A DNA stretch of 64,000 nucleotides from Minisyncoccota bacterium (GTDB lineage: Bacteria; Patescibacteriota; Minisyncoccia; Phycocordibacterales; CSBR16-119): the NCBI GenBank assembly GCA_041389065.1, contig JAWKSM010000001.1:9461-73460 (forward strand), given 5' to 3'. The translations under genes were made by a program, and so were the position numbers. Shown one piece after another: positions 786-62,735 of the stretch. Within the stretch, counting starts at the first letter, position 1; each line of letters opens with the position of its first letter. The notes beneath the pieces are model-generated. The model searched no databases and was not told where the DNA came from. It saw nothing but the letters and a program-made list of their open reading frames with translations.

Positions 786-982
786 CGACCGTTTTAAATA
801 TTGCGACGCAAAAATAATAGTATTTTGCCTTAGAAAATGATGCTGTTTGAGCCAGAAGAAGAAGTGTATATACACTTCTTCTTCTGGCGAGTTCATCATT
901 TTCTTGGCTCAAAATCTATTATTTTAAGCAATATTTAATTAGGTCTTGAATTTTTGTTACTTTTGCTTCAAGACAAAAGTAA
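786..982 (-). repeat. TCAAACAG-loop structured element, copy 1 (full length)
   Basis: Minus-strand order: 5' AT hairpin TTACTTTTG..CAAAAGTAA (982-957), then CAAAAATTCAAGAC, then the long hairpin at 925-811. The hairpin core is GAAAATGATG-AACTC-GCCAGAAGAAGAAGTG-TATATA-CACTTCTTCTTCTGGC-TCAAACAG-CATCATTTTC (903-833). A tail, GCGTCGCAATATTTAAAAC, follows. Confidence 0.7.
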
Positions 983-991
983 GAGAAAATC

Positions 992-10323: not shown

Positions 10324-10593
10324 TTACCAAGAAGATTTTCTAATACCTGGAATTTCTCCTTCATTTGCCAATTCTCGAAACTTGATTCGAGAAAGACCAA
10401 AATCACGAAGAAAACCTTTTCCTCGACCTGTTGCCACGCATCTATTTTTTAGTCTCGATGATGAAGAATTCTTTGGAAGTTTTTGCAAAGCTTCAAAATC
10501 ACCAGAGGCTTTTAGTTCTGCTCGTTTTTTAGCAAATTTTGCGTGAAGTTTTACGCGTTTTGCTTGTCGAGCCAAGACTGATCTTTTTGCCAT
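10324..10593 (-). CDS. rpsN: 30S ribosomal protein S14 (uS14), long form
   Basis: Start re-assigned to the internal ATG at 10593 ([20 protein letters not shown]...GIRKSSW, 89 aa). The 39-codon upstream extension in the track has no S14 similarity. Confidence 0.9.
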
Positions 10594-10749
10594 ATTCTGA
10601 TCTAAACCAAAAGCAAGCTTTTGGTTGTTATTTATAAAAGAAACTGCAATATCTCGTGTTTTTACTTGTATTTTCGAGCCAAATGGCCAGAAAAACACAA
10701 GGAGAAACACGGATTAAACAGGATCTATCAGCTTTTTGCTGATGTTTGT

Positions 10750-10777
10750 ATATTAACAAAAAGGACTAAAAAGTCAA
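10750..10777 (-). promoter_or_regulatory. Sigma70-like promoter, TTGACT-16-TAATAT, re-starting transcription into rpsN
   Basis: Minus strand reads TTGACTTTTTAGTCCTTTTTGTTAATAT. It lies 9 nt outside the 5' hairpin of element copy 2. Confidence 0.45.
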
Positions 10778-10785
10778 TGGGCCTC

Positions 10786-10925
10786 CTTACTTTTTCATTA
10801 CCAAAAAGTAAGCAAAAGGCTAGACCCACACATACCACCTAAAAATAATAGATTTTAAGCTAAGAAAATGATGAACTCGCCCCGCAAAGAAGTGTTTAAT
10901 ACACTTCTTTGCGGGGCTCAAACAG
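10786..10925 (+). repeat. TCAAACAG-loop structured element, copy 2 (5' part only, interrupted)
   Basis: CTTACTTTTT..AAAAAGTAAG hairpin, CTAGACCCACAC motif, then AAAATAATAGATTTTAAGCTAAGAAAATGATG-AACTC-GCCCCGCAAAGAAGTGT-TTAA-TACACTTCTTTGCGGGGC-TCAAACAG. The 3' arm of the outer stem is missing, and Asd-like coding sequence starts at 10926. Confidence 0.7.
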
Positions 10926-11831
10926 GGTGGTTTCAATAGAGACCGGGTCAGAGTCTCTGGATCTTCTCGAAGGGGTGGGCTTACAACCGTTGGAGAACTC
11001 TTGAGCGAACCCCCAAACTTTATTTTGTCTGCCCTACCAGCCAAAGCTGCAAAGGAGATACTTCCTGAGTTTTCTGCAAGAGGCTCAATCGTTATCGATA
11101 AATCCGATGCATTCAGAATGCAGGAAGAGCCGGCTATTAAGTTGATCGTGCCTGAAGTAAATGGGCATTTACTGATAGGAGATGAAAGGATCGTTGCAAG
11201 TCCAAACTGCACAACCACACAACTTGTTGTTGCAATTAATCCCCTTCACAAGGAACTTAGGTTGTCCTCGCTTCACGTTACAACCTTTCAATCTGCAAGC
11301 GGGGCTGGGAAAGAAGGGTCTGAACAACTGCGCAAAGAGTCTCTGCGAATACCCGTTCCGAAAACTGAAATGGTTTTTCGACCACAGCTTTTCAGGAACG
11401 TGGTTCCAGTTTGCGGAAGTATCACAGGAAGCGGTGAAAGTACCGAGGAGCTAAAGATCAAAATGGAAACCAGAAAGATCATGGAGCTCCCCGACCTTCC
11501 GGTCTATGCAACATCGACAAGGGTTGCTGTTGAAAGATCGCACTCAATGTCTGTAGTTGCGAGATTTGAAAAGCCAACAACAGCAGCTTCTGTGATGGAA
11601 ATACTATCTCGAGAAGGTACTGGGGTTGAAATACCCTGTGACAACAGTGAGTATTTCACCGCCTTAGAAGCCTCTGGAGAAAACCTGGTCTATGTTAGCA
11701 GAATTCGCGTAGACAAAGATGATCCAAGAATTGTGAGCCTTTGGGTTGTTGCCGACAACCTAAGAAAAGGTGCGGCACTCAACGCTTGGCAAATAATGAA
11801 AATAATAATGAATCGCAAAGGGTGGTCCTAA
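10926..11831 (+). pseudogene. asd: Aspartate-semialdehyde dehydrogenase, 5'-truncated (no Rossmann GxxGxxG segment, no start codon)
   Basis: Translation shows Asd blocks: VSGSSRRGG, VIDKSDAFRM, LIVPEVN, active-site SPNCTTT, QSASGAG, VERSHS, ADNLRKGAALNA. Similarity continues upstream of the track's TTG start (11001) to about 10926 without any start codon. About 30 N-terminal residues are absent. GC is clearly higher than the host's. Confidence 0.8.
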
Positions 11832-11841
11832 CAGGACCACC
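11821..11841 (+). terminator. Hairpin spanning the asd stop codon
   Basis: GGTGGTCC-taaca-GGACCACC followed by CAATTTTATT. It probably travelled with the asd fragment. Confidence 0.4.
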
Positions 11842-11857
11842 CAATTTTATTAAAAAC

Positions 11858-11881
11858 AAAAACCACCTCTCGGTGGTTTTT
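11858..11881. terminator. Bidirectional intrinsic terminator directly after rplE
   Basis: AAAAACCACC-tctc-GGTGGTTTTT with flanking A- and T-runs, 10 nt from the rplE stop (11891). On the minus strand it would end the transcript inside the spc operon. Confidence 0.6.
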
Positions 11882-11890
11882 GTTTTTGAA

Positions 11891-12457
11891 TTATTTCTTC
11901 TTTTTCTTTGGTTCTGAGACTTTTTTAAATGGCATTCCGATGTGATCAAACAAAGCTTTTGCTTCTGCTTTTGTTTTTGCTGTAGTTGCAATAGTTACCG
12001 CCATTCCGAAAACATCTTTCAATTCTTCATCACCTGTTTCTGGGAAAATAGTGTGTTCGCGAACTCCAAGAGTTAGGTTTCCAATATTGTCGATAATTTT
12101 TGAATCAACTCCTCGGAAGTCTTTTGTTCGTGGAAGAGCAATGTTTATCAGCTTATCAATAAAAGAATACATTTTTTCTCCTCGAAGCGTTACCATCATA
12201 CCGATTGGCTCACCTTGTCTAACTTTGAATTGAGCGATAGATTTCTTTGCTTGTCGCATTGCTGGTTTTTGACCAGTGATTTTTGCAATTCTGTCTGCGA
12301 TAAAAGTGTTTTTGTTTTTATCGTTTCGCATTTTTGAACCAGTTCCCACAGAAATAACCACCTTTGTGATTTTTGGAGCGGCCATAGAATTTTTATAGCC
12401 AAACTCTCCTTTCAAGGCGTTATACGAATCTTTAATTTTTTCTTTTACTGTTTTCAT
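11891..12457 (-). CDS. rplE: 50S ribosomal protein L5 (uL5)
   Basis: 188 aa; conserved L5 blocks (PKITKVVISVGTG, MVTLRGEKMYSFIDKLI). Confidence 0.95.
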   Translation of the reverse strand: MKTVKEKIKDSYNALKGEFGYKNSMAAPKITKVVISVGTGSKMRNDKNKNTFIADRIAKITGQKPAMRQAKKSIAQFKVRQGEPIGMMVTLRGEKMYSFIDKLINIALPRTKDFRGVDSKIIDNIGNLTLGVREHTIFPETGDEELKDVFGMAVTIATTAKTKAEAKALFDHIGMPFKKVSEPKKKKK

Positions 12458-15152: not shown

Positions 15153-15497
15153 TTATTTCTTAGCTGATGAAGCTGCTGTTTTAGCTGCTTGTGCTGCTGC
15201 AATTTCAGATTCTTTCTTCTTTTGCTCAAGCTCTTTCATAAGCTTACCTCCGTGTCTGTGGAAAGTTCTTGTAGGAGAAAATTCTCCAAGTCTGTGACCA
15301 ACCATGTCTTCAGAAACAAGAACTTCAATGTGCTTTCGACCATTGTGAACACCAAAGATAAAACCAACCATTTCTGGCGCAATCTGAGAAGATCTTGCCC
15401 AAGTCTTAATAACCCCAGTTTCTTGAGGTTTTTTTCCAGCTATCTTTTTAAGTAGCTTTACGTCTACGTATGGACCTTTTTTAAGTGATCTTGTCAT
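15153..15497 (-). CDS. rpsS: 30S ribosomal protein S19 (uS19)
   Basis: 114 aa; [12 protein letters not shown]...HNGRKH...[13 protein letters not shown]. Confidence 0.95.
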
Positions 15498-15504
15498 AAT
15501 TTAA

Positions 15505-15600
15505 ATGATTAGAATCGAACCTGTCCGAACGGACTTCGTCCGGGCGGGTACATGGCTAGGTCGTGTATCCAAGGCATAGCCTTAGGGTTCACCGCCATCT
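15505..15600 (-). promoter_or_regulatory. GC-rich structured leader immediately upstream of rpsS (function unknown)
   Basis: Minus strand contains a CUAAGGC-UAU-GCCUUGG hairpin (15585-15569), an enclosing GGCGG/CCGCC pairing, and three segments CGGAC-gaa-GUCCG-uu-CGGAC (15542-15523). The middle segment can pair with either neighbour. It is much GC-richer than its surroundings. It contains a GGTTCGATTC T-loop-like string, but no tRNA cloverleaf can be drawn. Confidence 0.4.
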
Positions 15601-15652
15601 CTATATTTAGTTTAATTAGGTAAAAAAATTCCAGCCAAAACTGGATTTGCCT

Positions 15653-15681
15653 ATACTATCAGATAGGGGTTTTGTTGTCAA
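15653..15681 (-). promoter_or_regulatory. Sigma70-like promoter, TTGACA-17-TAGTAT, re-starting transcription into rpsS
   Basis: Minus strand reads TTGACAACAAAACCCCTATCTGATAGTAT, 15 nt outside the 5' hairpin of element copy 3. It is followed by a small CCAG..CTGG hairpin plus a T-run (15644-15621). Confidence 0.45.
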
Positions 15682-15695
15682 ACGATTTTAGACAT

Positions 15696-15916
15696 GTCAC
15701 TTTTTTCTTAGCAAAAAAGTGACCAAAAAGCCAAGACGCAGAAAAATCTAGCTAAAAACACAGGCTTTTTGTTGAGAAAACTGTGAACTCGCTTTTAGCT
15801 CAAACAGCACAGCTTTTCTAGAACAAAAAGCCTGTGTTTTCTTTACGCTATATTTTAAGCGTCGAAAGATTTTAATTTAAAACGAAGCCCCGCACCTTAC
15901 GGCGCGGTCTCAAAAT
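15696..15916 (+). repeat. TCAAACAG-loop structured element, copy 3 (full length, short inner stem)
   Basis: GTCACTTTTTT..AAAAAAGTGAC hairpin, CAAAAAGCCAAGACGCAG, then the long hairpin AACACAGGCTTTTTGTTGAGAAAACTGTG-AACTC-GCT-ttt-AGC-TCAAACAG-CACAGCTTTTCTAGAACAAAAAGCCTGTGTT. The tail is ACGCTATATTTTAAGCGTCGAAAGATTTTAATTTAAAACG. A GCCCCGCACC..GGCGCGG hairpin then follows, followed by CTCAAAAT. Confidence 0.7.
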
Positions 15917-15925
15917 AATAAAACT

Positions 15926-15953
15926 AGACCCCGCGACAGTTGTCGCGGGGTCT
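15926..15953 (-). terminator. Intrinsic terminator after the 120-aa ORF
   Basis: AGACCCCGCGACA-gt-TGTCGCGGGGTCT is a perfect 13-bp stem, 8 nt after the stop at 15961, with a T-rich run on the minus strand. Confidence 0.6.
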
Positions 15954-15960
15954 GATATGA

Positions 15961-16323
15961 CTACTGATTGCCGTTTTGGACAATCTTGTAGAAAAAAAGT
16001 GTGGTCTTGATGTACCCTGCTTCCCTTGGGTCGTGCACATACTTACTTGGATTTGTGTCACGTATATCACCAAAAACAATCTTCTCCACCAAAGCATTTA
16101 CGTGGGTTGCTCCGATATTCTTAGCCTTGGTCCCTGCAAAACGAATAATACTTGGATATGCAGACCACAAAAAGAAACTATTTCTGAAAACTGTCTCTTG
16201 TCGGACAGGCTCGTAAAATTCAAATCCAGAAAAACTATAGCCAAGTGAAATAACAATTTCTCCATCTACAAAAGGTTCTAGCTTAACTAAACCTTCTTTG
16301 TCTGAAGCGATTACTTTTATCAT
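15961..16323 (-). CDS. Hypothetical protein (120 aa), orphan inside the S10 operon
   Basis: Longest ORF in the segment, bracketed by hairpin terminators. No motif recognised. Slightly GC-richer than the r-protein genes, by eye. Confidence 0.55.
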   Translation of the reverse strand: MIKVIASDKEGLVKLEPFVDGEIVISLGYSFSGFEFYEPVRQETVFRNSFFLWSAYPSIIRFAGTKAKNIGATHVNALVEKIVFGDIRDTNPSKYVHDPREAGYIKTTLFFYKIVQNGNQ

Positions 16324-16378
16324 CTTCGGGAGGTTTTAATTAAAGATATGATATTTAAAATCTTTTGTCAAAAATGAA

Positions 16379-16403
16379 GAACCCCGACCATTGGCCGGGG
16401 TTC
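16379..16403 (-). terminator. Hairpin terminator after the 147-aa ORF
   Basis: GAACCCCG..CGGGGTTC stem located between the two orphan ORFs. Confidence 0.45.
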
Positions 16404-16423
16404 GAGGTGTGGTAGAAAGTTCA

Positions 16424-16867
16424 TCAATCAACGTCCGAGGAAACGTTTATTTCCCATGCAGAAGGTGCGCCACTAGGGAAAAATGCAATGAAGAAAGCAG
16501 ATAGTTTATTCCAGAAATTAGGGGTTGAAAACCTTCCTTCTGGAAAAAGGCTCCCGATTGTTGAAGACAAGTGCTTATCCCAGTTCTTCTGAAGGTTGAG
16601 GTGTCTCCTCAGCTCGTGAACAAGACGAGCATATTCTCCATTAACTTTACTTTTATCAATAACCATAAGATCGTCTATCAATGGATGCTCTCCACTTATA
16701 TCGAGTTTGAATTTCCTCACTGGACCAAGCTCATAGAGGAAGCGAAGCCAAAAAGTACAAAGCCATAGCGCAATTCGAGCACCAAAGTTTCCATGACCAA
16801 TCTTAAAGGTCTCAAGACTATAGCGAGCCTTTGCAAACCTGATATGTGATTTGTTTTTCTTTTCCAT
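16424..16867 (-). CDS. Hypothetical protein (147 aa), orphan inside the S10 operon
   Basis: Longest ORF in the segment; the overlapping plus-strand ORF is shorter. No motif recognised. Confidence 0.55.
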   Translation of the reverse strand: MEKKNKSHIRFAKARYSLETFKIGHGNFGARIALWLCTFWLRFLYELGPVRKFKLDISGEHPLIDDLMVIDKSKVNGEYARLVHELRRHLNLQKNWDKHLSSTIGSLFPEGRFSTPNFWNKLSAFFIAFFPSGAPSAWEINVSSDVD

Positions 16868-16916
16868 CTTAGTAAGGTTCTAGTGGTTTTAAATCAATCC
16901 TACAACATAAAAATAC

Positions 16917-16947
16917 AAAAAGCCAGGCCGCAAGGCCTGGCTTTTTG
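16917..16947 (-). terminator. Strong intrinsic terminator directly after rplB
   Basis: AAAAAGCCAGGCC-ttgc-GGCCTGGCTTTTT on the minus strand, about 40 nt after the rplB stop. This position is normally read through into rpsS. Confidence 0.65.
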
Positions 16948-16985
16948 TGTTCTACGTTCCACGTTTTAAGCTTCACGTTTAACGA

Positions 16986-17840
16986 TTATTTTGATCTTTG
17001 TTGATTTCTTTTTGTTTTTCTTCGAGTAACAATAAACTTATCAGAGTATTTCTTCGATCGTCGTGTTTTAACTCCGTAAGCAAGCTTACCGTGTCGTGTC
17101 TTTGGACCTCTTCGAAGACCGATTCCTTGTCGACCTTCACCTCCTCCGTGTGGGTGGTCTACTGGGTTCATGGCCGTACCACGAACTGTAGGTCTGATTC
17201 CAAGCCATCTGTTTCTTCCGGCTTTTCCTCTTTTAACAAGTTTAAATTCAGCGTTTGAAACTTCTCCAACTGTTGCAAAACATGTTGAAGGAACTTTTCT
17301 AATTTCACCTGATGGCATTTTTAGAGAAGTTTTTCCTTCATCGTGAGCAACAACTTGAACGAAAGATCCTGCACCTCTTGCGATTTTTGCACCTCCTTTG
17401 AACTTCAATTCAACGTTGTGAACAAAGTTACCTACAGGAATGTTTACAAGAGCCATTCTGTTTCCAGCTTTTACTTCTGCTTCTTGTGAGACAACAAAAG
17501 TATCGCCAACATTCAACCCTTTTACCGCAAGAACGTATCTCTTTTCTCCATCTTTGTATGAAACAAGAGAGATGAAAGAGTTTCTGTTTGGATCGTATTC
17601 AACAGACTTTACTGTCGCTGGGATATCAAATTTATTATAAGTAAAATCGATATCTCGATATCGTCTCTTGTGTCCACCACCTTGGTGGGGAACAGTTACA
17701 ATACCTCTGTTGTTTCGTCCGCCTTTTTTCTTAAGACCTCGTAGAAGTTTTTTTGTTGGACGTGTGCCCGACAAAGCTTTTCTATAATTTGTTGTCACCA
17801 GGTTTCTTTTACCTGCTGACGTTGGTTTATGTATTTTCAT
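16986..17840 (-). CDS. rplB: 50S ribosomal protein L2 (uL2)
   Basis: 284 aa; GRNNRGIVTVPHQGGGHKRRYR, MNPVDHPHGGGEGR. Confidence 0.97.
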   Translation of the reverse strand: MKIHKPTSAGKRNLVTTNYRKALSGTRPTKKLLRGLKKKGGRNNRGIVTVPHQGGGHKRRYRDIDFTYNKFDIPATVKSVEYDPNRNSFISLVSYKDGEKRYVLAVKGLNVGDTFVVSQEAEVKAGNRMALVNIPVGNFVHNVELKFKGGAKIARGAGSFVQVVAHDEGKTSLKMPSGEIRKVPSTCFATVGEVSNAEFKLVKRGKAGRNRWLGIRPTVRGTAMNPVDHPHGGGEGRQGIGLRRGPKTRHGKLAYGVKTRRSKKYSDKFIVTRRKTKRNQQRSK

Positions 17841-20029: not shown

Positions 20030-21226
20030 TTATTTGATGATTTTAACTACAACTCCGGCACCAACTGTTCTTCCTCCTTCTCGCACCGCAAATCTTTGTT
20101 GTTCTTCAAGGGCGATAGGTGCAACCAAGTTTACTTTGATATTTACAGTATCTCCTGGCATAACCATTTCTGTTCCTTCTGGAAGTGTTACTTCACCTGT
20201 TACGTCTGTTGTTCGAAGATAGAATTGTGGTTTGTAACCTTTGAAGAATGGAGTGTGTCGTCCACCTTCTTCTTTCTTTAGAACGTAGATTTCAGCTTCA
20301 AATTCTGTGTGAGGTTTTACTGAACCAACAGCAGCAAGAACTTGTCCTCGGTGAATATCTTCTTTCTTAGTACCTCGTAGTAGAAGTCCAGCGTTGTCTC
20401 CAGCCATACCTTCAGAAAGTTGTTTGTTGAACATTTCAACTCCTGTGATAGTTGTTTTTGTTGTTTCGTGTAGACCAACAATTTCAACTTCTTGACCAAC
20501 TTTGATAACACCTCTTTCAATTTTACCTGTAGCAACAGTTCCTCTTCCTTCGATAGAGAAAATGTCTTCAACTGGCATAAGGAAAGGTTTGTCTAGATCT
20601 CGAACTGGTTCTGGGATGTATGTATCAAGAGCATCCATAAGTTCCATAATCTTTCCAACCCAAGGATCGTTAGGATCTGTAGCTTCAGTAGCTTTTAGAC
20701 CTGATCCCTTAATAACTGGAGTGTTAGCTCCATCGAATCCGTTCTTTGTAAGAAGTTCTCGAATTTCTTCTTCAACAAGCATTACCATTTCTTCGTCTTC
20801 AACCATGTCTACTTTGTTTAGGAAAACAACGAATCTTGGCACACCTACTTGTTTTGCAAGAAGTACGTGTTCACGAGTTTGTGGCATCACACCATCTGTA
20901 GCTGCAACCACTAGGATTGCACCGTCCATTTGTGCGGCACCTGTAATCATGTTTTTGATGTAGTCAGCGTGACCTGGCGCGTCGATGTGCGCGTAGTGTC
21001 GCTTTTCTGTTTCATACTCTTGGTGAGAAAGAGAGATAGTAATACCTCTTTCTTTTTCTTCAGGAGCATTATCGATATCTGCTACTGACTTCATTGAAGC
21101 CATAAACCCCTTAAGCTTTAGAGCGTTAAGGATACCTGCAGTAAGAGTTGTCTTACCGTGGTCAACGTGTCCAATTGTACCCACGTTTACGTGAGGCTTT
21201 GAACGATCAAACATTTCTGCTGCCAT
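20030..21226 (-). CDS. tuf: Elongation factor Tu
   Basis: 398 aa; [22 protein letters not shown]-motifs. Confidence 0.98.
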
Positions 21227-21339
21227 AATATTATATATTGGTTGATGTCTTTAATTTTGTGCACGAGAACTGTGACAAAACCAACGACACCAACATAATT
21301 ACTTAATAATTTACTAATGTGCACTACACATATTTTCAT

Positions 21340-21507
21340 CCTAAAATCGGTTTTTAGGAAACAAAAAGACGCGTAAGTGCGCTGTGGAGTATTGTATATG
21401 AAAAGAGTTGAGGCGTCAAGGAGTTTTTTTCTTTTATTAAATGAAAGGATTTAATTTAAAAAGAAAGCCCCGCAGTCCTTCCGGACTGCGGGGTTTACTC
21501 AAACAAG
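21340..21507 (+). repeat. TCAAACAG-loop structured element, copy 5 (degenerate)
   Basis: CCTAAAA..TTTTAGG hairpin, AAACAAAAAGACGCG, then the tail GAGGCGTCAAGG ... GGATTTAATTTAAAAAGAAA. A GCCCCGCAGTCC-ttcc-GGACTGCGGGG hairpin follows (same GCCCCGCA/TGCGGGG ends as the copy 2 inner stem), followed by TTTA-CTCAAACA-AGG. The long outer hairpin is missing. Confidence 0.5.
21391..21419 (-). promoter_or_regulatory. Sigma70-like promoter, TTGACG-17-TACAAT, reading toward tuf
   Basis: Minus strand reads TTGACGCCTCAACTCTTTTCATATACAAT. The -35 box is the reverse complement of the conserved GCGTCAAGG tail motif of the element. Confidence 0.4.
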
Positions 21508-21517
21508 GAACAGATCA

Positions 21518-21787
21518 CTATGTCAGCATCTGCATCTGGTAGTTGGGTCGGACAACCGTTCCATTGTCGAGAAGAGGTTTCAGGTCAAGCCAGACCAGCT
21601 CATGCAAACGAGGCAACGGGAATTTTGGCTGAGGTAACATCTCAACATCAAGCTTCTCTAGTAGAGCTTTGGCGAGATACTCATTAAGCTCTGACTCATT
21701 TGCGATAGTGTCTCCCTCTAGCCAATCCCGGAAGCGAAAGAGGGATTCCATGAACCCAAGCTTCGATTTCCGAATTGCGCTCATCAT
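21518..21787 (-). CDS. Hypothetical protein (89 aa), orphan between fusA and tuf
   Basis: ORF in a GC-richer segment, downstream of the 62-aa ORF on the same strand in a different frame. Confidence 0.5.
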   Translation of the reverse strand: MMSAIRKSKLGFMESLFRFRDWLEGDTIANESELNEYLAKALLEKLDVEMLPQPKFPLPRLHELVWLDLKPLLDNGTVVRPNYQMQMLT

Positions 21788-21840
21788 GTCACCGTGACAT
21801 AGATGACGGCAACACTCCTGTGGAAGCTGGTTTGACAGAT

Positions 21841-22029
21841 TTAGTATGAAGATGACAGATCTATTACCAGCCTTATCAATAATGCGAGCTTCCCGGACCA
21901 GTAACTCGGAAGTGAGTGGCGCACCTTATGTCCCCAATCATCCTCATATTGAGGTCCAGCGTTTTCGGAATTATCCTGAAAACCCACACGAAATTCGATA
22001 TTCATGGTTACTCCTTCGAGAGTTTTCAT
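21841..22029 (-). CDS. Hypothetical protein (62 aa), orphan between fusA and tuf
   Basis: ORF preceded by the promoter at 22072-22100. It could be a separate small gene or the 5' part of a frameshifted gene continuing in 21518..21787. Confidence 0.4.
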   Translation of the reverse strand: MKTLEGVTMNIEFRVGFQDNSENAGPQYEDDWGHKVRHSLPSYWSGKLALLIRLVIDLSSSY

Positions 22030-22071
22030 GGTGTTTCGTTCTAGTTAGAAGTGCTTTCTTCTTCAAAATTA

Positions 22072-22100
22072 ATATTACTCTTACTAAAAAACTTTTGCAA
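22072..22100 (-). promoter_or_regulatory. Sigma70-like promoter, TTGCAA-17-TAATAT
   Basis: Minus strand reads TTGCAAAAGTTTTTTAGTAAGAGTAATAT, about 40 nt upstream of the ATG at 22029. Confidence 0.45.
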
Positions 22101-22108
22101 GCCAAAAC

Positions 22109-22134
22109 AAAAATCTCCCTCTCGGGAGATTTTT
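22109..22134 (-). terminator. Intrinsic terminator directly after fusA
   Basis: AAAAATCTCCC-gaga-GGGAGATTTTT, 22 nt after the fusA stop. fusA-tuf is normally co-transcribed. Confidence 0.6.
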
Positions 22135-22155
22135 GCTTTTGCTTATTTAAATTAT

Positions 22156-24309
22156 TTAAGCTGTTTGTCTTTTTTTGATTATTTCTTCTGAAACGTTCTT
22201 TGGAACAACATCGTATCGTAGGAATTCCATTGTGAAGTTTCCTCGTCCTGCAGTCATTGATCGAAGATTGTTGATATATCCGAACATTGATGAAAGTGGA
22301 ACAACTGCTTTAATAGCTTGAACCATTCCTCTGTCTTCTGTTCCTTCGATAAGCCCTCTCTTTGATGCAATATCTCCAGTAATGTCTCCCATATATGAGT
22401 GAGGGGCAACAACTTCAACTTTCATCATCGGTTCAAGAATAACAGGACTTGCTTTCTTTGCAGCATCTTGGAAAGCCATTGATGAAGCAATTTTGAACGC
22501 AATTTCAGAAGAGTCCACGTCGTGATACGATCCATCGTATAGATCAACTCGAATATCAGTCATTGGGTATCCAGCAAGAACACCTCTTGCCATTGATTCT
22601 CTAAATCCTTTTTCACAAGCTGGAATATATTCTTGAGGAATAACACCACCTTTGATTGAGTTTACAAATTCCAAACCATCTTCTCTTGAAACGTTCTTTG
22701 GCAAATCTTCTTCAGCCACAGAATAATCAAGTGGAGAAACTCTGATCTTAACGTGACCGTATTGTCCGCGACCTCCTGATTGTTTGATGTATTTATTTTC
22801 AACGTCAGCAGTTCCAGAAATAGTTTCTCGGAAAGCAACTTGTGGAGCACTTGTATTTGCTTCAACAGAAAACTCTCTTTTCATTCTGTCTACGATAATA
22901 TCAAGGTGAAGTTCTCCCATACCAGCGATGATTGTTTCGCCTGTTTCAGGATCTGAAGAAACTCGGAAAGTTGGATCTTCTGCTTGAAGTCTGTTTAGAG
23001 CAAGACCCATTTTTTCTTGGTCTGCTTTTGTCTTTGGTTCAATTCTCATTGAGATAACCGGTTCTGGCGCAACAATCTTTTCAAGCATTATTGGATGATC
23101 TTCATTACAAAGAGTGTCTGATGTTGTTGTATCTTTAAGACCAACAGCAGCAGCGATTTCTCCAGCGTAAACAACCTTCACTTCTTCTCTGTCGTTTGAG
23201 TGCATTCGAAGAATTCTACCGACTCGCTCTTTTATACCTTTTGTAGCGTTGTAAACATAAGAACCTGATTCTAGTTTTCCAGAATATACTCGGATGAAAG
23301 TTAGCTGACCAACGTATGGATCTGATTGAAGCTTGAAAGCCAGTGCAGCAAGCGGGGCTTCGTCAGAAACTTCTCTTTCAACTGTTTCGTTTGTTTCTGG
23401 ATCAATACCTTTTGGTTTTGGAATATCAAGTGGACTTGGAAGATAATCAACAACACCATCCAAAACCAATTGCACTCCTTTGTTCTTTAGAGCTGATCCA
23501 CAAAATACTGGGAAAATTTCATTTTTGATAACAGCAGATCGAAGAGCTTTTTTCAAATCTTCAACAGAAAAATCTGTCTTTCCTTCAAGATATTCTGACA
23601 TCATCGCTTCGTCAGTTTCTACAATTTTTTCTACAAGCTCCATTCGAAGTTTTTCAGCCTCATCTTTGTATTCAGCTGGAATTTCCATTTCTACAATGTC
23701 TTTTCCTTTATCTCCTTCGAACTTATAAGCTTTCATTTTTATAAGATCAATAACAGCTTCGAACTTGTCTTCAAGTCCAATAGGAATTTGAATTCTGACA
23801 GCCTTTTTTGTAAGACGCGCCAAAATACTTTCGAAAGATCTTTCAAAAGAAGCACCTGTTCTGTCTAGTTTGTTAATAAAACAAAGTCGTGGCACGTTTC
23901 CATCATCAGCATATCTCCAGTTTGTTTCTGATTGCGGCTCTACCCCAGCCACTCCATCGAAAACAACAACAGCACCGTCCAAAACTCGAAGAGATCTTTT
24001 CACTTCAATAGTGAAGTCGATGTGACCCGGTGTGTCGATTAGGTTAAACTGACACTTTTTTGAAGTATCTGTTGCAGGCATATATGAAGGGCTCCAAAAT
24101 GCTGTTGTCGCAGCAGAGGCGATAGTGATTCCTCGCTCTCTTTCTTGTTCCATCCAGTCCATCACTGTTTCTCCGTCGTGAACTTCGCCTATTTTGTGAC
24201 TTTCACCAGTATAAAAAAGCACACGTTCTGATGTTGTTGTTTTACCAGCATCGATGTGAGCAATGATTCCAAAATTTCTAACTTTAGCGAGTGGGTAGTC
24301 TCTGTTCAT
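22156..24309 (-). CDS. fusA: Elongation factor G
   Basis: 717 aa; [21 protein letters not shown] motifs and full domain complement. Confidence 0.98.
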
Positions 24310-33312: not shown

Positions 33313-33351
33313 AGCAATAATTATATCAGATATTGAAAAACTGATAAAAAC

Positions 33352-33375
33352 AAAAACACCCTTTCGGGTGTTTTT
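33352..33375 (-). terminator. Intrinsic terminator after the glycine-rich giant gene
   Basis: AAAAACACCC-gaaa-GGGTGTTTTT. Confidence 0.6.
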
Positions 33376-33383
33376 GTTTTCTA

Positions 33384-43571: not shown

Positions 43572-43642
43572 GATTTTTCTTTAAAAGTATTAATTTACTT
43601 TTTTCATAAAAATCTCCTTTTGTTTTTCCTTAAAATATCTCC

Positions 43643-43955
43643 TTACTTTTTTCATGATAAAAAAGTAACAAAAAATCTAGACCCACACTTCACACTTAAA
43701 ATACCATCTTTCTTTTCCCTTGAAGGAAAAGAAACAAAAGTTCAAGACGCAGAAAAATATATCTAAAATTTATTCAATTTTGGCTAAGAAAGTGATGAAC
43801 TCGCCCGAAAAAGAAGTGTCTATACACTTCTTTTTCGGGCTCAAACAGCATCACTTTCTAAAGCAAATTAAATAAATTTTCGGACGATATATTTTAAGCG
43901 TCAAGGGATTTTAATTAAAAAGAATAAGGGCGACCCCGGTGAGGGTCGCCCTTTT
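43643..43955 (+). repeat. TCAAACAG-loop structured element, copy 4 (full length, duplicated 5' module, own terminator)
   Basis: TTACTTTTTT..AAAAAAGTAA hairpin; CTAGACCCACAC motif; a second hairpin TTCTTTTCC..GGAAAAGAA; TTCAAGACGCAG. The long hairpin follows: AAAATTTATTCAATTTTGGCTAAGAAAGTGATG-AACTC-GCCCGAAAAAGAAGTG-TCTATA-CACTTCTTTTTCGGGC-TCAAACAG-CATCACTTTCTAAAGCAAATTAAATAAATTTT. The tail is GACGATATATTTTAAGCGTCAAGGGATTTTAATTAAAAAG. It ends in GGGCGACCC..GGGTCGCCC plus TTTT (43928-43955). Confidence 0.75.
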
Positions 43956-62681: not shown

Positions 62682-62703
62682 GAAAGATACTATAGCATAA
62701 AAC

Positions 62704-62729
62704 AAAAATCTCCCGAGCGGGAGATTTTT
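62704..62729 (-). terminator. Intrinsic terminator
   Basis: AAAAATCTCCC-gctc-GGGAGATTTTT. The stem is identical to the one after fusA (22109-22134). Confidence 0.6.
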
Positions 62730-62735
62730 GTTTTA

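Follow-up and report, generated by a model that had tools for sequence, protein, structure and literature searches.

The gene order of the S10 operon, including the adjacency of rplB (ribosomal protein L2) and rpsS (S19), is a textbook case of frozen bacterial gene order, and the concatenated ribosomal-protein trees that place Candidate Phyla Radiation lineages have the S10 block as their backbone. How, then, does a metagenome-assembled genome of Candidatus Paceibacterota, from a bacterium of groundwater type with a tiny genome, come to carry 1,488 nt of other DNA between these two genes? We analyzed a 64-kb stretch of this genome (hereafter the window, in whose coordinates positions are given), in which the minus strand reads fusA, tuf, S10, L3, L4, L23, rplB, the 1,488-nt interval (15498-16985), rpsS, L22, S3, L16, L29, S17, L14, L24 and L5. 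A previous sequence-only reading had described the interval as a single cassette placed into this junction. All the features it listed were found, on the minus strand and no more than a few bases from the positions given for them; this observation is confirmed, and the interpretation is partly supported. We consider it likely that these 1.5 kb are a standing slot for accessory genes, insulated by terminator and promoter, or recombination hotspot, between ultra-conserved genes, rather than a recent hit on an intact operon. Its layers differ in age: the operon cut, a first open reading frame (ORF147), and a second one (ORF120) with a palindromic repeat.

To place the junction among bacteria, 80 loci around relatives of L2 were taken, one genome per GTDB species, and the distance from rplB to rpsS was measured. 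That the two genes normally lie close together was borne out: in about 55 non-Patescibacteria loci the spacer was at most 113 nt and typically 15-35 nt (four values came out negative and were read as genes that adjoin or overlap, rather than as true distances). Loci of the ABY1 type had spacers of 78 nt (labeled Uhrbacteria) and 6 nt (Kerfeldbacteria). The loci nearest in L2 (53-61% identical) had spacers of 132, 164, 552, 579, 658, 770, 809, 842, 1104, 1109 and 3535 nt, and three further ones (L011, L012 and L023 in our numbering of loci) had no rpsS within 4 kb of rplB. The nearest loci are labeled Paceibacterota, Taylorbacteria, Zambryskiibacteriota, Kaiserbacteria, Minisyncoccia and, in several cases, TPA "Saccharibacteria"; for several of the GTDB contigs such labels cannot be relied on. 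The sequence-only reading had asked whether the junction is empty elsewhere. In the closest Paceibacterota relatives sampled it is already open, with a strong terminator directly 3' of rplB in all of them. Where rpsS is nearby, it is immediately preceded by a TTGAC(A/T)-17-TAnnAT promoter and then a short hairpin with a U-run. The nearly empty junctions of L010 and L034 also carry this promoter-hairpin-U-run before rpsS. The operon cut looks ancestral to the Paceibacterota group sampled, and since it is common to these relatives, the apparent insertion in the window would be the local content of a pre-existing gap. A keyword search of open-access full texts returned no described split of the S10 operon in Patescibacteria.

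The contents of these spacers are mutually unrelated (DgkA twice, DUF5674, a pyrF/pyrD/pyrE-like trio, and orphans). Together with the loci discussed below, the occupants comprise the ORF147 family, ORF120, ORFs of 171, 123, 222 (with an HExxH motif) and 376 aa, DgkA, DUF5674, the pyrF/pyrD/pyrE-like genes and several orphans. The rplB terminator, the rpsS promoter or both bound the variable segment in the window, in L001-L009, L090-L094 and L097, and in 11 GTDB loci. Non-homologous genes thus lie between the same conserved flanks in different genomes, as expected of a hotspot flanked by core genes. In two Paceibacterota lineages that are separate from each other (L016 4849-8385 and L029 4849-5402), the gene directly 5' of the rpsS promoter is DgkA, the prokaryotic diacylglycerol kinase; the spacer of L016 additionally holds the pyrF-, pyrD- and pyrE-like genes.

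In the window the interval is built of self-contained promoter/ORF/terminator modules, as had been described, all on the minus strand. The rplB gene (16986-17840; Pfam L2_N and L2_C), final gene of the tuf-S10-L3-L4-L23-L2 unit, is followed by an intrinsic terminator, T1 (16915-16948), with a 15 bp stem and T-run, which is kept in every relative that has ORF147. The first slot position then begins with a -10-like TAGGAT (16897-16902) and a AGAACCTT motif (16874-16881) in the 5' untranslated region (5'UTR), both conserved in an alignment of upstream regions; these signals, which have no canonical -35, may act as a promoter. They precede ORF147 (16424-16867; NCBI name R3B39_00200) and its predicted terminator T2 (16379-16403). 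The second module consists of a promoter-like site, TTGACA-17-TATCTT (16343-16371; 10/12 matches, without comparative support), ORF120 (15961-16323; NCBI name R3B39_00195) and two predicted terminator hairpins, T3 (15926-15953) and T4 (15890-15907). Downstream of these lie copy 3 of the palindromic repeat (15696-15856), with a long hairpin at about 15743-15856 around a GCTGTTTGAGC...GCGAGTTCA core and a short one at 15696-15723, then the rpsS promoter (15653-15681; TTGACA-17-TAGTAT with an extended -10 TG), a structured leader (15498-15646) and rpsS itself (15153-15497; Pfam S19), first gene of the rpsS...rplE unit. Terminator-like matches were enriched in the region (24 vs 9.0 expected); promoter-like matches as a class were not (25 vs 23.9 expected), and the rpsS promoter carries weight because it is conserved in relatives (L004, L005, L008, L009, L091-L094, L096 and L097). 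Neither Rfam, at gathering and permissive thresholds, nor ARAGORN detected a known RNA or tRNA; at gathering thresholds Rfam gave no match over the 64 kb, and at E up to 10 none fell on 15498-15650, the remaining matches being spurious microRNA and small RNA matches on hairpins and terminators.

This arrangement suggests how such a slot could persist. The S10 operon would be cut after rplB by the intrinsic terminator, and transcription would restart at the sigma-70-type promoter before the nearby rpsS. With the terminator at one end and the promoter at the other, transcription of the ribosomal genes would be unaffected by the spacer, and insertions there could be tolerated.

The alternative put forward by the sequence-only reading is that one recent mobile cassette, comprising terminator, two ORFs, repeat and promoter, was put into an intact rplB-rpsS operon. 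The self-contained modules speak for it, as do the repeated palindromic element within the interval and the strain-specific ORF120 block, whose sequence is 100% identical even though the strains sharing it differ elsewhere. Atypical base composition is a further point in its favor: the two ORFs had been read as slightly GC-richer than their neighbors, and this holds for GC at third codon positions (0.38 in ORF147 and 0.35 in ORF120 vs 0.24-0.25 in the flanking ribosomal-protein genes), but not for overall GC, which is equal. However, the terminator, the ORF147 family, the rpsS promoter and the leader occur in relatives that have neither ORF120 nor the repeat (L004, L091, L094, L097), and the junction is open in the sampled Paceibacterota relatives. 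The interval contains no transposase or integrase, just two small ORFs, neither with a Pfam match, and 15498-16985 is not enclosed by direct or inverted repeats, according to a repeat search that included no specific model of attC sites. At most about 15688-16375 behaves as a recent insert. For the interval as a whole these findings contradict a single cassette, which is thus very unlikely; ORF147 is old, and only the ORF120 block is recent.

How slot contents could change is best seen in pairwise comparisons. Locus L097, on a 162-kb contig, was picked through its L2 (93% identical) and is therefore unbiased with respect to slot content. From the tuf promoter (21420) to the rplB stop (16984) it is collinear with the window at 86.2% identity. 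The terminator, the TAGGAT/TAGTAT -10 and the AGAACCTT 5'UTR follow as a stretch of 76.9% identity that ends 7 nt before the ATG of ORF147. No homology is found across the ORF region until the -35 of the rpsS promoter, where 84.6% identity resumes (15683) and extends to the end of rplE (11849). L097 has no ORF147; in its place stands an unrelated 171-aa ORF (hhalign probability 0.06%), which is preceded by the same first-slot signals (TAGGAT/TAGTAT -10 and AGAACCTT). Thus, between these two genomes the expression scaffold appears conserved and the ORF exchanged, and the breakpoints lie at the expression signals.

Two further pairs gave similar pictures of mosaic identity with sharp breakpoints. 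L092 and L093 have flanks of 99.2-99.6% identical DNA and identical S19, and their ORF147-family alleles share 44% identity at the protein level and no homology at the DNA level. L092 also contains a 222-aa ORF (1118-1786) with an HExxH motif (MHELWH) and no significant Pfam match, which is absent from L093. Between the window and L001, rplB shows 12 synonymous and 0 non-synonymous differences (pS 0.059), the L2 proteins being identical, and ORF147 is 85% identical by BLASTP (91.8% in the mosaic comparison), with indels clustered at 16647-16702. We propose that homology arms are provided by the ribosomal genes on either side (85-99% identical across the genus), which belong to the most conserved DNA of the genome, and that after DNA uptake slot contents are replaced by homologous recombination, between strains or species. 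The first slot position would then consist of conserved signals and a replaceable ORF, here the fast-evolving orphan ORF147, to which the strain group of the window would have added ORF120 as a second module with its own promoter-like site and terminator, adjoined by the repeat.

Searches of protein databases of 5.8 billion and 1.8 billion entries with ORF147 yielded only about 10 clusters of homologs, 29-88% identical. The second of these, an exhaustive hidden Markov model search of 1.8 billion representatives, returned 5 clusters, all within this small family, and a metagenome scan with the ORF147 alignment added only one more locus. The ratio of non-synonymous to synonymous substitution rates (dN/dS) was 0.06-0.17 between distant members and 0.44 in the closest pair; the former values indicate that ORF147 is a real protein-coding gene under purifying selection. 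Its product is soluble, has a pI of 9.6 and is predicted to be helical; a membrane protein was considered and rejected, the maximum 19-residue hydropathy being 1.25. Both slot ORFs had been said to lack a recognized motif, and both proved to be orphans: no sequence-profile match was found for either in Pfam, PADLOC, PHROGs or PDB, except a PADLOC match for ORF120 at chance level (E 0.022), and none in GenBank phages (tblastn) or IMG/VR (pattern scans). AlphaFold2 models of ORF147 were unusable (pLDDT 40 with a 6-sequence and 44 with a 10-sequence alignment).

Every recovered ORF147 homolog adjoins the rplB terminator, the rpsS promoter or both, and in each case with downstream sequence available it is located 5' of rpsS. 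It lies directly 3' of the terminator in L001-L003, L007, L008, L090 and L091, and directly 5' of the rpsS promoter in L004 and L091-L094. Another small ORF separates rplB from the homolog in L092 and L093, and in L006 an unrelated 376-aa ORF follows the homolog before the contig ends. Homologs down to 32% identity, in lineages whose L2 proteins are 72-100% identical, were always found at the rplB/rpsS locus. The sequence-only reading had set its cassette against an old, fixed feature with host-like codon usage, and ORF147 falls between the two: it is old, but it is polymorphic, replaced in L097, and its codon usage is intermediate. It is an old but polymorphic resident of the slot, not a fixed one.

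Such faithfulness to one locus could reflect a functional tie to the ribosomal genes, with ORF147 being a lineage-specific ribosome-associated protein or a binder of the rpsS leader motif described below. Its place beside the rpsS promoter is kept where L2 is only 72% identical, the protein is basic and under purifying selection, and among the Paceibacterota sampled, the family and the leader motif are both confined to one clade. However, terminators insulate ORF147 on both sides, its codon usage is unlike that of ribosomal-protein genes, and L097 keeps the leader motif with an unrelated ORF in place of ORF147. In addition, alleles only 44% identical occur in strains with identical S19, and the leader core is invariant. 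The shared distribution of ORF147 and leader may be mere common ancestry. The terminators, the divergent alleles and the absence from L097 are also inconsistent with a novel ribosomal protein, and we regard a functional tie of either kind as quite improbable.

A different proposal is that the slot genes are selfish or conflict genes (free-standing homing endonucleases, toxin/immunity or anti-phage genes) kept between indispensable genes under diversifying or frequency-dependent selection. A fixed locus between conserved genes, presence/absence and allelic polymorphism among near-identical strains, the clustering of ORF147 changes in the middle of the gene and the dN/dS of 0.44 in the closest pair are all consistent with it, and its case also counts the occupants as orphans throughout. 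Yet the profile searches of the slot ORFs (Pfam, PADLOC, PHROGs, PDB) revealed no homing endonuclease, other nuclease, toxin or defense domain, and the phage and IMG/VR searches no match; the simplest loci (L091, L094, L097) lack a partner gene, and distant alleles are under ordinary purifying selection. This proposal seems unlikely to us, if slightly less so than the two considered above. It should be noted that it overlaps with the standing slot, as it concerns function and not architecture; the occupants of such a slot would be accessory genes, possibly under frequency-dependent selection.

ORF120 has a different history. It was present only in the window and L001-L003, where it is 100% identical at the DNA level, and its sole protein match was itself. 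In L004, L005, L008, L009, L091, L094 and L097 it is absent, the terminator of the slot ORF leads almost straight to the rpsS promoter, and the segment at about 15688-16375 of the window has no counterpart. Over 650 nt including ORF120 (15799-16448) the window and L001-L003 show 0 differences, whereas 5.9% of the synonymous sites in rplB differ. The per-site rate of rplB would lead one to expect about 9 differences (P about 1e-4; this value depends on the neutrality assumption and becomes 0.011 with ORF120 synonymous sites only and 1.6e-9 if intergenic bases are also taken as neutral). Such identity despite a diverged rplB points to a recent transfer or sweep, and the ORF120 block alone would be a recent strain-level acquisition. 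ORF120 is probably, though not certainly, coding, on the sole basis of its codon-usage score, which in frame is positive and the best of six frames (0.19 vs a host mean of 0.36 ± 0.13).

The palindromic element next to ORF120 occurs in at least four intergenic copies in the window (808-985, 10790-10945, 15696-15856 and 43640-43880). Outside the window it was found in L003 (1400-1579), upstream of rpsS in L092 and L093, and in L096 (1-200). In each copy a spacer separates an imperfect hairpin about 115 nt long, with a conserved GATGCTGTTTGAGCC...GGCGAGTTCATC core, from a second one of some 28 nt; predicted hairpin energies are -56 to -88 kcal/mol. Copies occur in both orientations, often just 5' of a promoter, and in short (apex deleted) and long forms. 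Variants of the element, with compensatory changes in the hairpin arms, sit at the same spot 5' of the rpsS promoter in L092, L093 and L096. The element could be discarded as the source of this promoter, which is kept in the element-free loci L004, L091, L094 and L097. Palindromic intergenic repeats are known as REP- or MITE-like elements, and the present element resembles them in its dispersed intergenic copies within 64 kb, its long imperfect and short hairpins and its two orientations. It differs in having no Rfam similarity above chance and in the tendency of its copies to sit just 5' of promoters; its boundaries are too diffuse to call target-site duplications.

The repeat also bears on whether the locus is an artifact, a chimeric join produced by assembly or binning. 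The source is a metagenome-assembled genome, and the contigs of L001 and L002 end inside the repeat, a sign that this element is difficult to assemble. However, the order rplB-ORF147-ORF120 is the same in three independent assemblies from different samples (ENA ERZ27248697, Logan SRR8206192 and Logan SRR32609001), which argues that the arrangement is no chimera; the leader with its strain-specific hairpin recurs in L095, and the flanks are collinear with the long contig of L097. The probability of an artifact therefore appears extremely small.

Several points weigh against a standing slot of accessory genes. In L004 and L005, fusA, not rplB, stands 5' of the ORF147 homolog, with the same terminator sequence after fusA, so that there the slot is defined by rpsS and the shared terminator. 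The loci anchored on ORF147 are an ascertained sample; L097, the sole close relative of its kind, and the GTDB set are unbiased. Recombination would account for the mosaic identity, which was seen in a few short contigs and not in a population analysis, and termination and initiation would take place at sites that are predicted only. The accessory status of the slot genes is an assumption, and the stay of ORF147 at one locus across wide divergence could reflect the functional link discussed above. As for L004 and L005, the notion that ORF147 is always bounded by rplB was dropped. In both, fusA (elongation factor G domains III, IV and C; L004 2-1042, L005 2-361) precedes the homolog, and the two independent assemblies agree; this position implies that the tuf-S10-L3-L4-L23-L2 unit is missing from its usual place or has moved.

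The leader of rpsS is a second element of interest at this junction. At the 5' end of the transcript a hairpin with a U-run (15622-15645) is followed by the motif AUGGCGGUGA-variable hairpin-CACGACCUAGCCAU (15552-15598), and both were present in every member of the ORF147-bearing clade. The stem of the 5' hairpin covaries among relatives (tccag/ctgga vs ttcggcc/ggcctgaa). The exact motif occurs once in the window (0 expected by chance) and also in L004 and L091-L094, and a covariance model scored it at 66-85 bits in 7 distinct sequences. Its inner hairpin differs in each of seven lineages (CCuAAGGC/GCCUUGG, UUCAGU/ACUGAA, CCCGAGCC/GGCCCGGG, CCUUG/CAAGG, CUUUGGA/UCCAAAG, CCUA/UAGG and CCCUAGA/UCUAGG), with double changes in 5 of the 7 pairs; 90% of cells were paired, vs 15-50% with the partners slid. 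The outer helix is invariant and hence uninformative for covariation, and the support from seven sequences of one clade is modest. The model detected no motif outside those seven sequences in 250 kb of Paceibacterota loci, and a fuzzy regular expression for diverged motifs returned only noise in 97 loci. The motif ends 17-25 nt before the rpsS start in most relatives; in the window and L095 a strain-specific, GC-rich hairpin of about 37 nt (15515-15549) is found in between, which is absent from L004, L091-L094, L096 and L097.

A conserved structured 5'UTR of a ribosomal-protein operon, with covariation, is one mark of autoregulatory ribosomal-protein leaders, such as the S10 leader of E. coli with L4; members of the class also bind an encoded ribosomal protein, mimic its rRNA site and repress expression. 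Neither the window nor the loci contain rRNA of this organism. The rpsS leader is most likely of this class and a candidate new member, its regulatory role being suggested by structure and position. In this it resembles the E. coli leader and an alphaproteobacterial L2 leader candidate 5' of rplB-rpsS-rplV-rpsC (Eckert and Weinberg 2020, PMC7247131), as a structured 5'UTR with an invariant internal loop closed by a covarying hairpin. It is unlike them in matching nothing in Rfam, in standing before rpsS as the first gene and in being known from 7 sequences of one clade. None of the leaders in the 2020 catalog of new ribosomal leaders starts at rpsS (Eckert and Weinberg 2020, PMC7247131). A leader before rpsS as first gene makes sense because the operon is split, and it might allow the independent rpsS...rplE unit to be feedback-regulated.

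The closest described systems to the slot are integration hotspots flanked by core genes and the invaded junctions of the str-S10-spc-alpha cluster (PMC8046335). As in the latter, one conserved gene pair receives different accessory genes in each genome, no mobility genes are carried, and the cluster is loosened (fusA upstream in L004 and L005; rpsS more than 4 kb away in L011, L012 and L023). In contrast, the break described here is inside the S10 operon and not between operons, it is common to the sampled Paceibacterota relatives and not sporadic, and its cargo consists of single tiny orphan ORFs with a conserved expression scaffold at the first slot position. Free-standing homing endonuclease genes between conserved phage genes and single-gene defense or immunity islets are likewise small, self-contained, fixed in place and polymorphic among close strains. 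They differ from the slot ORFs, which have no detectable nuclease or defense domain and lie in the ribosomal-protein cluster of cellular Patescibacteria.

If the standing slot is real, a large candidate phylum appears to cut the S10 operon routinely, and the constraint would then act on transcription units and not on the whole cluster. It would also explain contig breaks and odd ORFs in the ribosomal blocks of Paceibacterota metagenome-assembled genomes, and would offer a short locus, easy to find, in which to seek the strain-variable genes of organisms whose accessory functions are hardly annotated. For an uncultured group, the leader would add a compact RNA that is a candidate regulator of ribosomal-protein synthesis. 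These points concern mainly Candidate Phyla Radiation genomics and the evolution of ribosomal operons.

A wider and much more tentative view, which we think possible but doubtful, is that the Paceibacterota ribosomal super-cluster as a whole consists of promoter-to-terminator units (tuf...rplB, rpsS...rplE, rpsN...) split by exchange slots, in which orphan ORFs might be swapped under conserved signals with the ribosomal genes as cross-species homology arms. The occupants, including ORF147, might then be strain-specific conflict or host-interaction factors, and the leader a new RNA that binds a ribosomal protein or ORF147 and arose from the split.

Other breaks were observed in the cluster. The second (10711-11890) separates rplE (11891-12457) from rpsN (10324-10710) and contains a bidirectional terminator (11850-11889), copy 2 of the palindromic element (about 10790-10945) and a TTGACT-16-TAATAT promoter (10750-10777). 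On its plus strand (11001-11831) lies a 5'-truncated fragment of an aspartate-semialdehyde dehydrogenase gene, which retains only the end of the NAD-binding domain and has a GC content of 0.457 vs 0.37 in the genome. At the same junction L091 has ORFs of 274 and 58 aa and L097 a different ORF, the homology between the window and L097 ending at 11849. Within a third variable spacer (21227-22155), between fusA (22156-24309) and tuf (20030-21226), there are two small ORFs (21518-21787, coding for 89 aa, and 21841-22029, for 62 aa) together with a terminator (21468-21493) and, at 21391-21419, a promoter of the form TTGACG-17-TACAAT. Homology with L097 starts exactly at this tuf promoter (21420), upstream of which L097 has an unrelated 205-aa ORF.

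A terminator of the form AAAACAAAAA-stem-loop-TTTTTGTTTT recurs in the window at 11852-11887, 22104-22139, 33346-33381 and 62699-62734; being symmetric, it may act in both directions. Terminators of this style follow rplB in many Paceibacterota loci. Finally, the S14 ORF (10324-10710) is listed with 128 aa and a GTG start, Pfam S14 covers only residues 75-127, and the L091 ortholog has 89 aa. The short domain and shorter ortholog suggest that the listed start is probably too far upstream and that part of the ORF is 5'UTR. With the start moved downstream, an ATCAGC...GCTGAT hairpin at about 10726-10744 would lie near the 5' end of the transcript.

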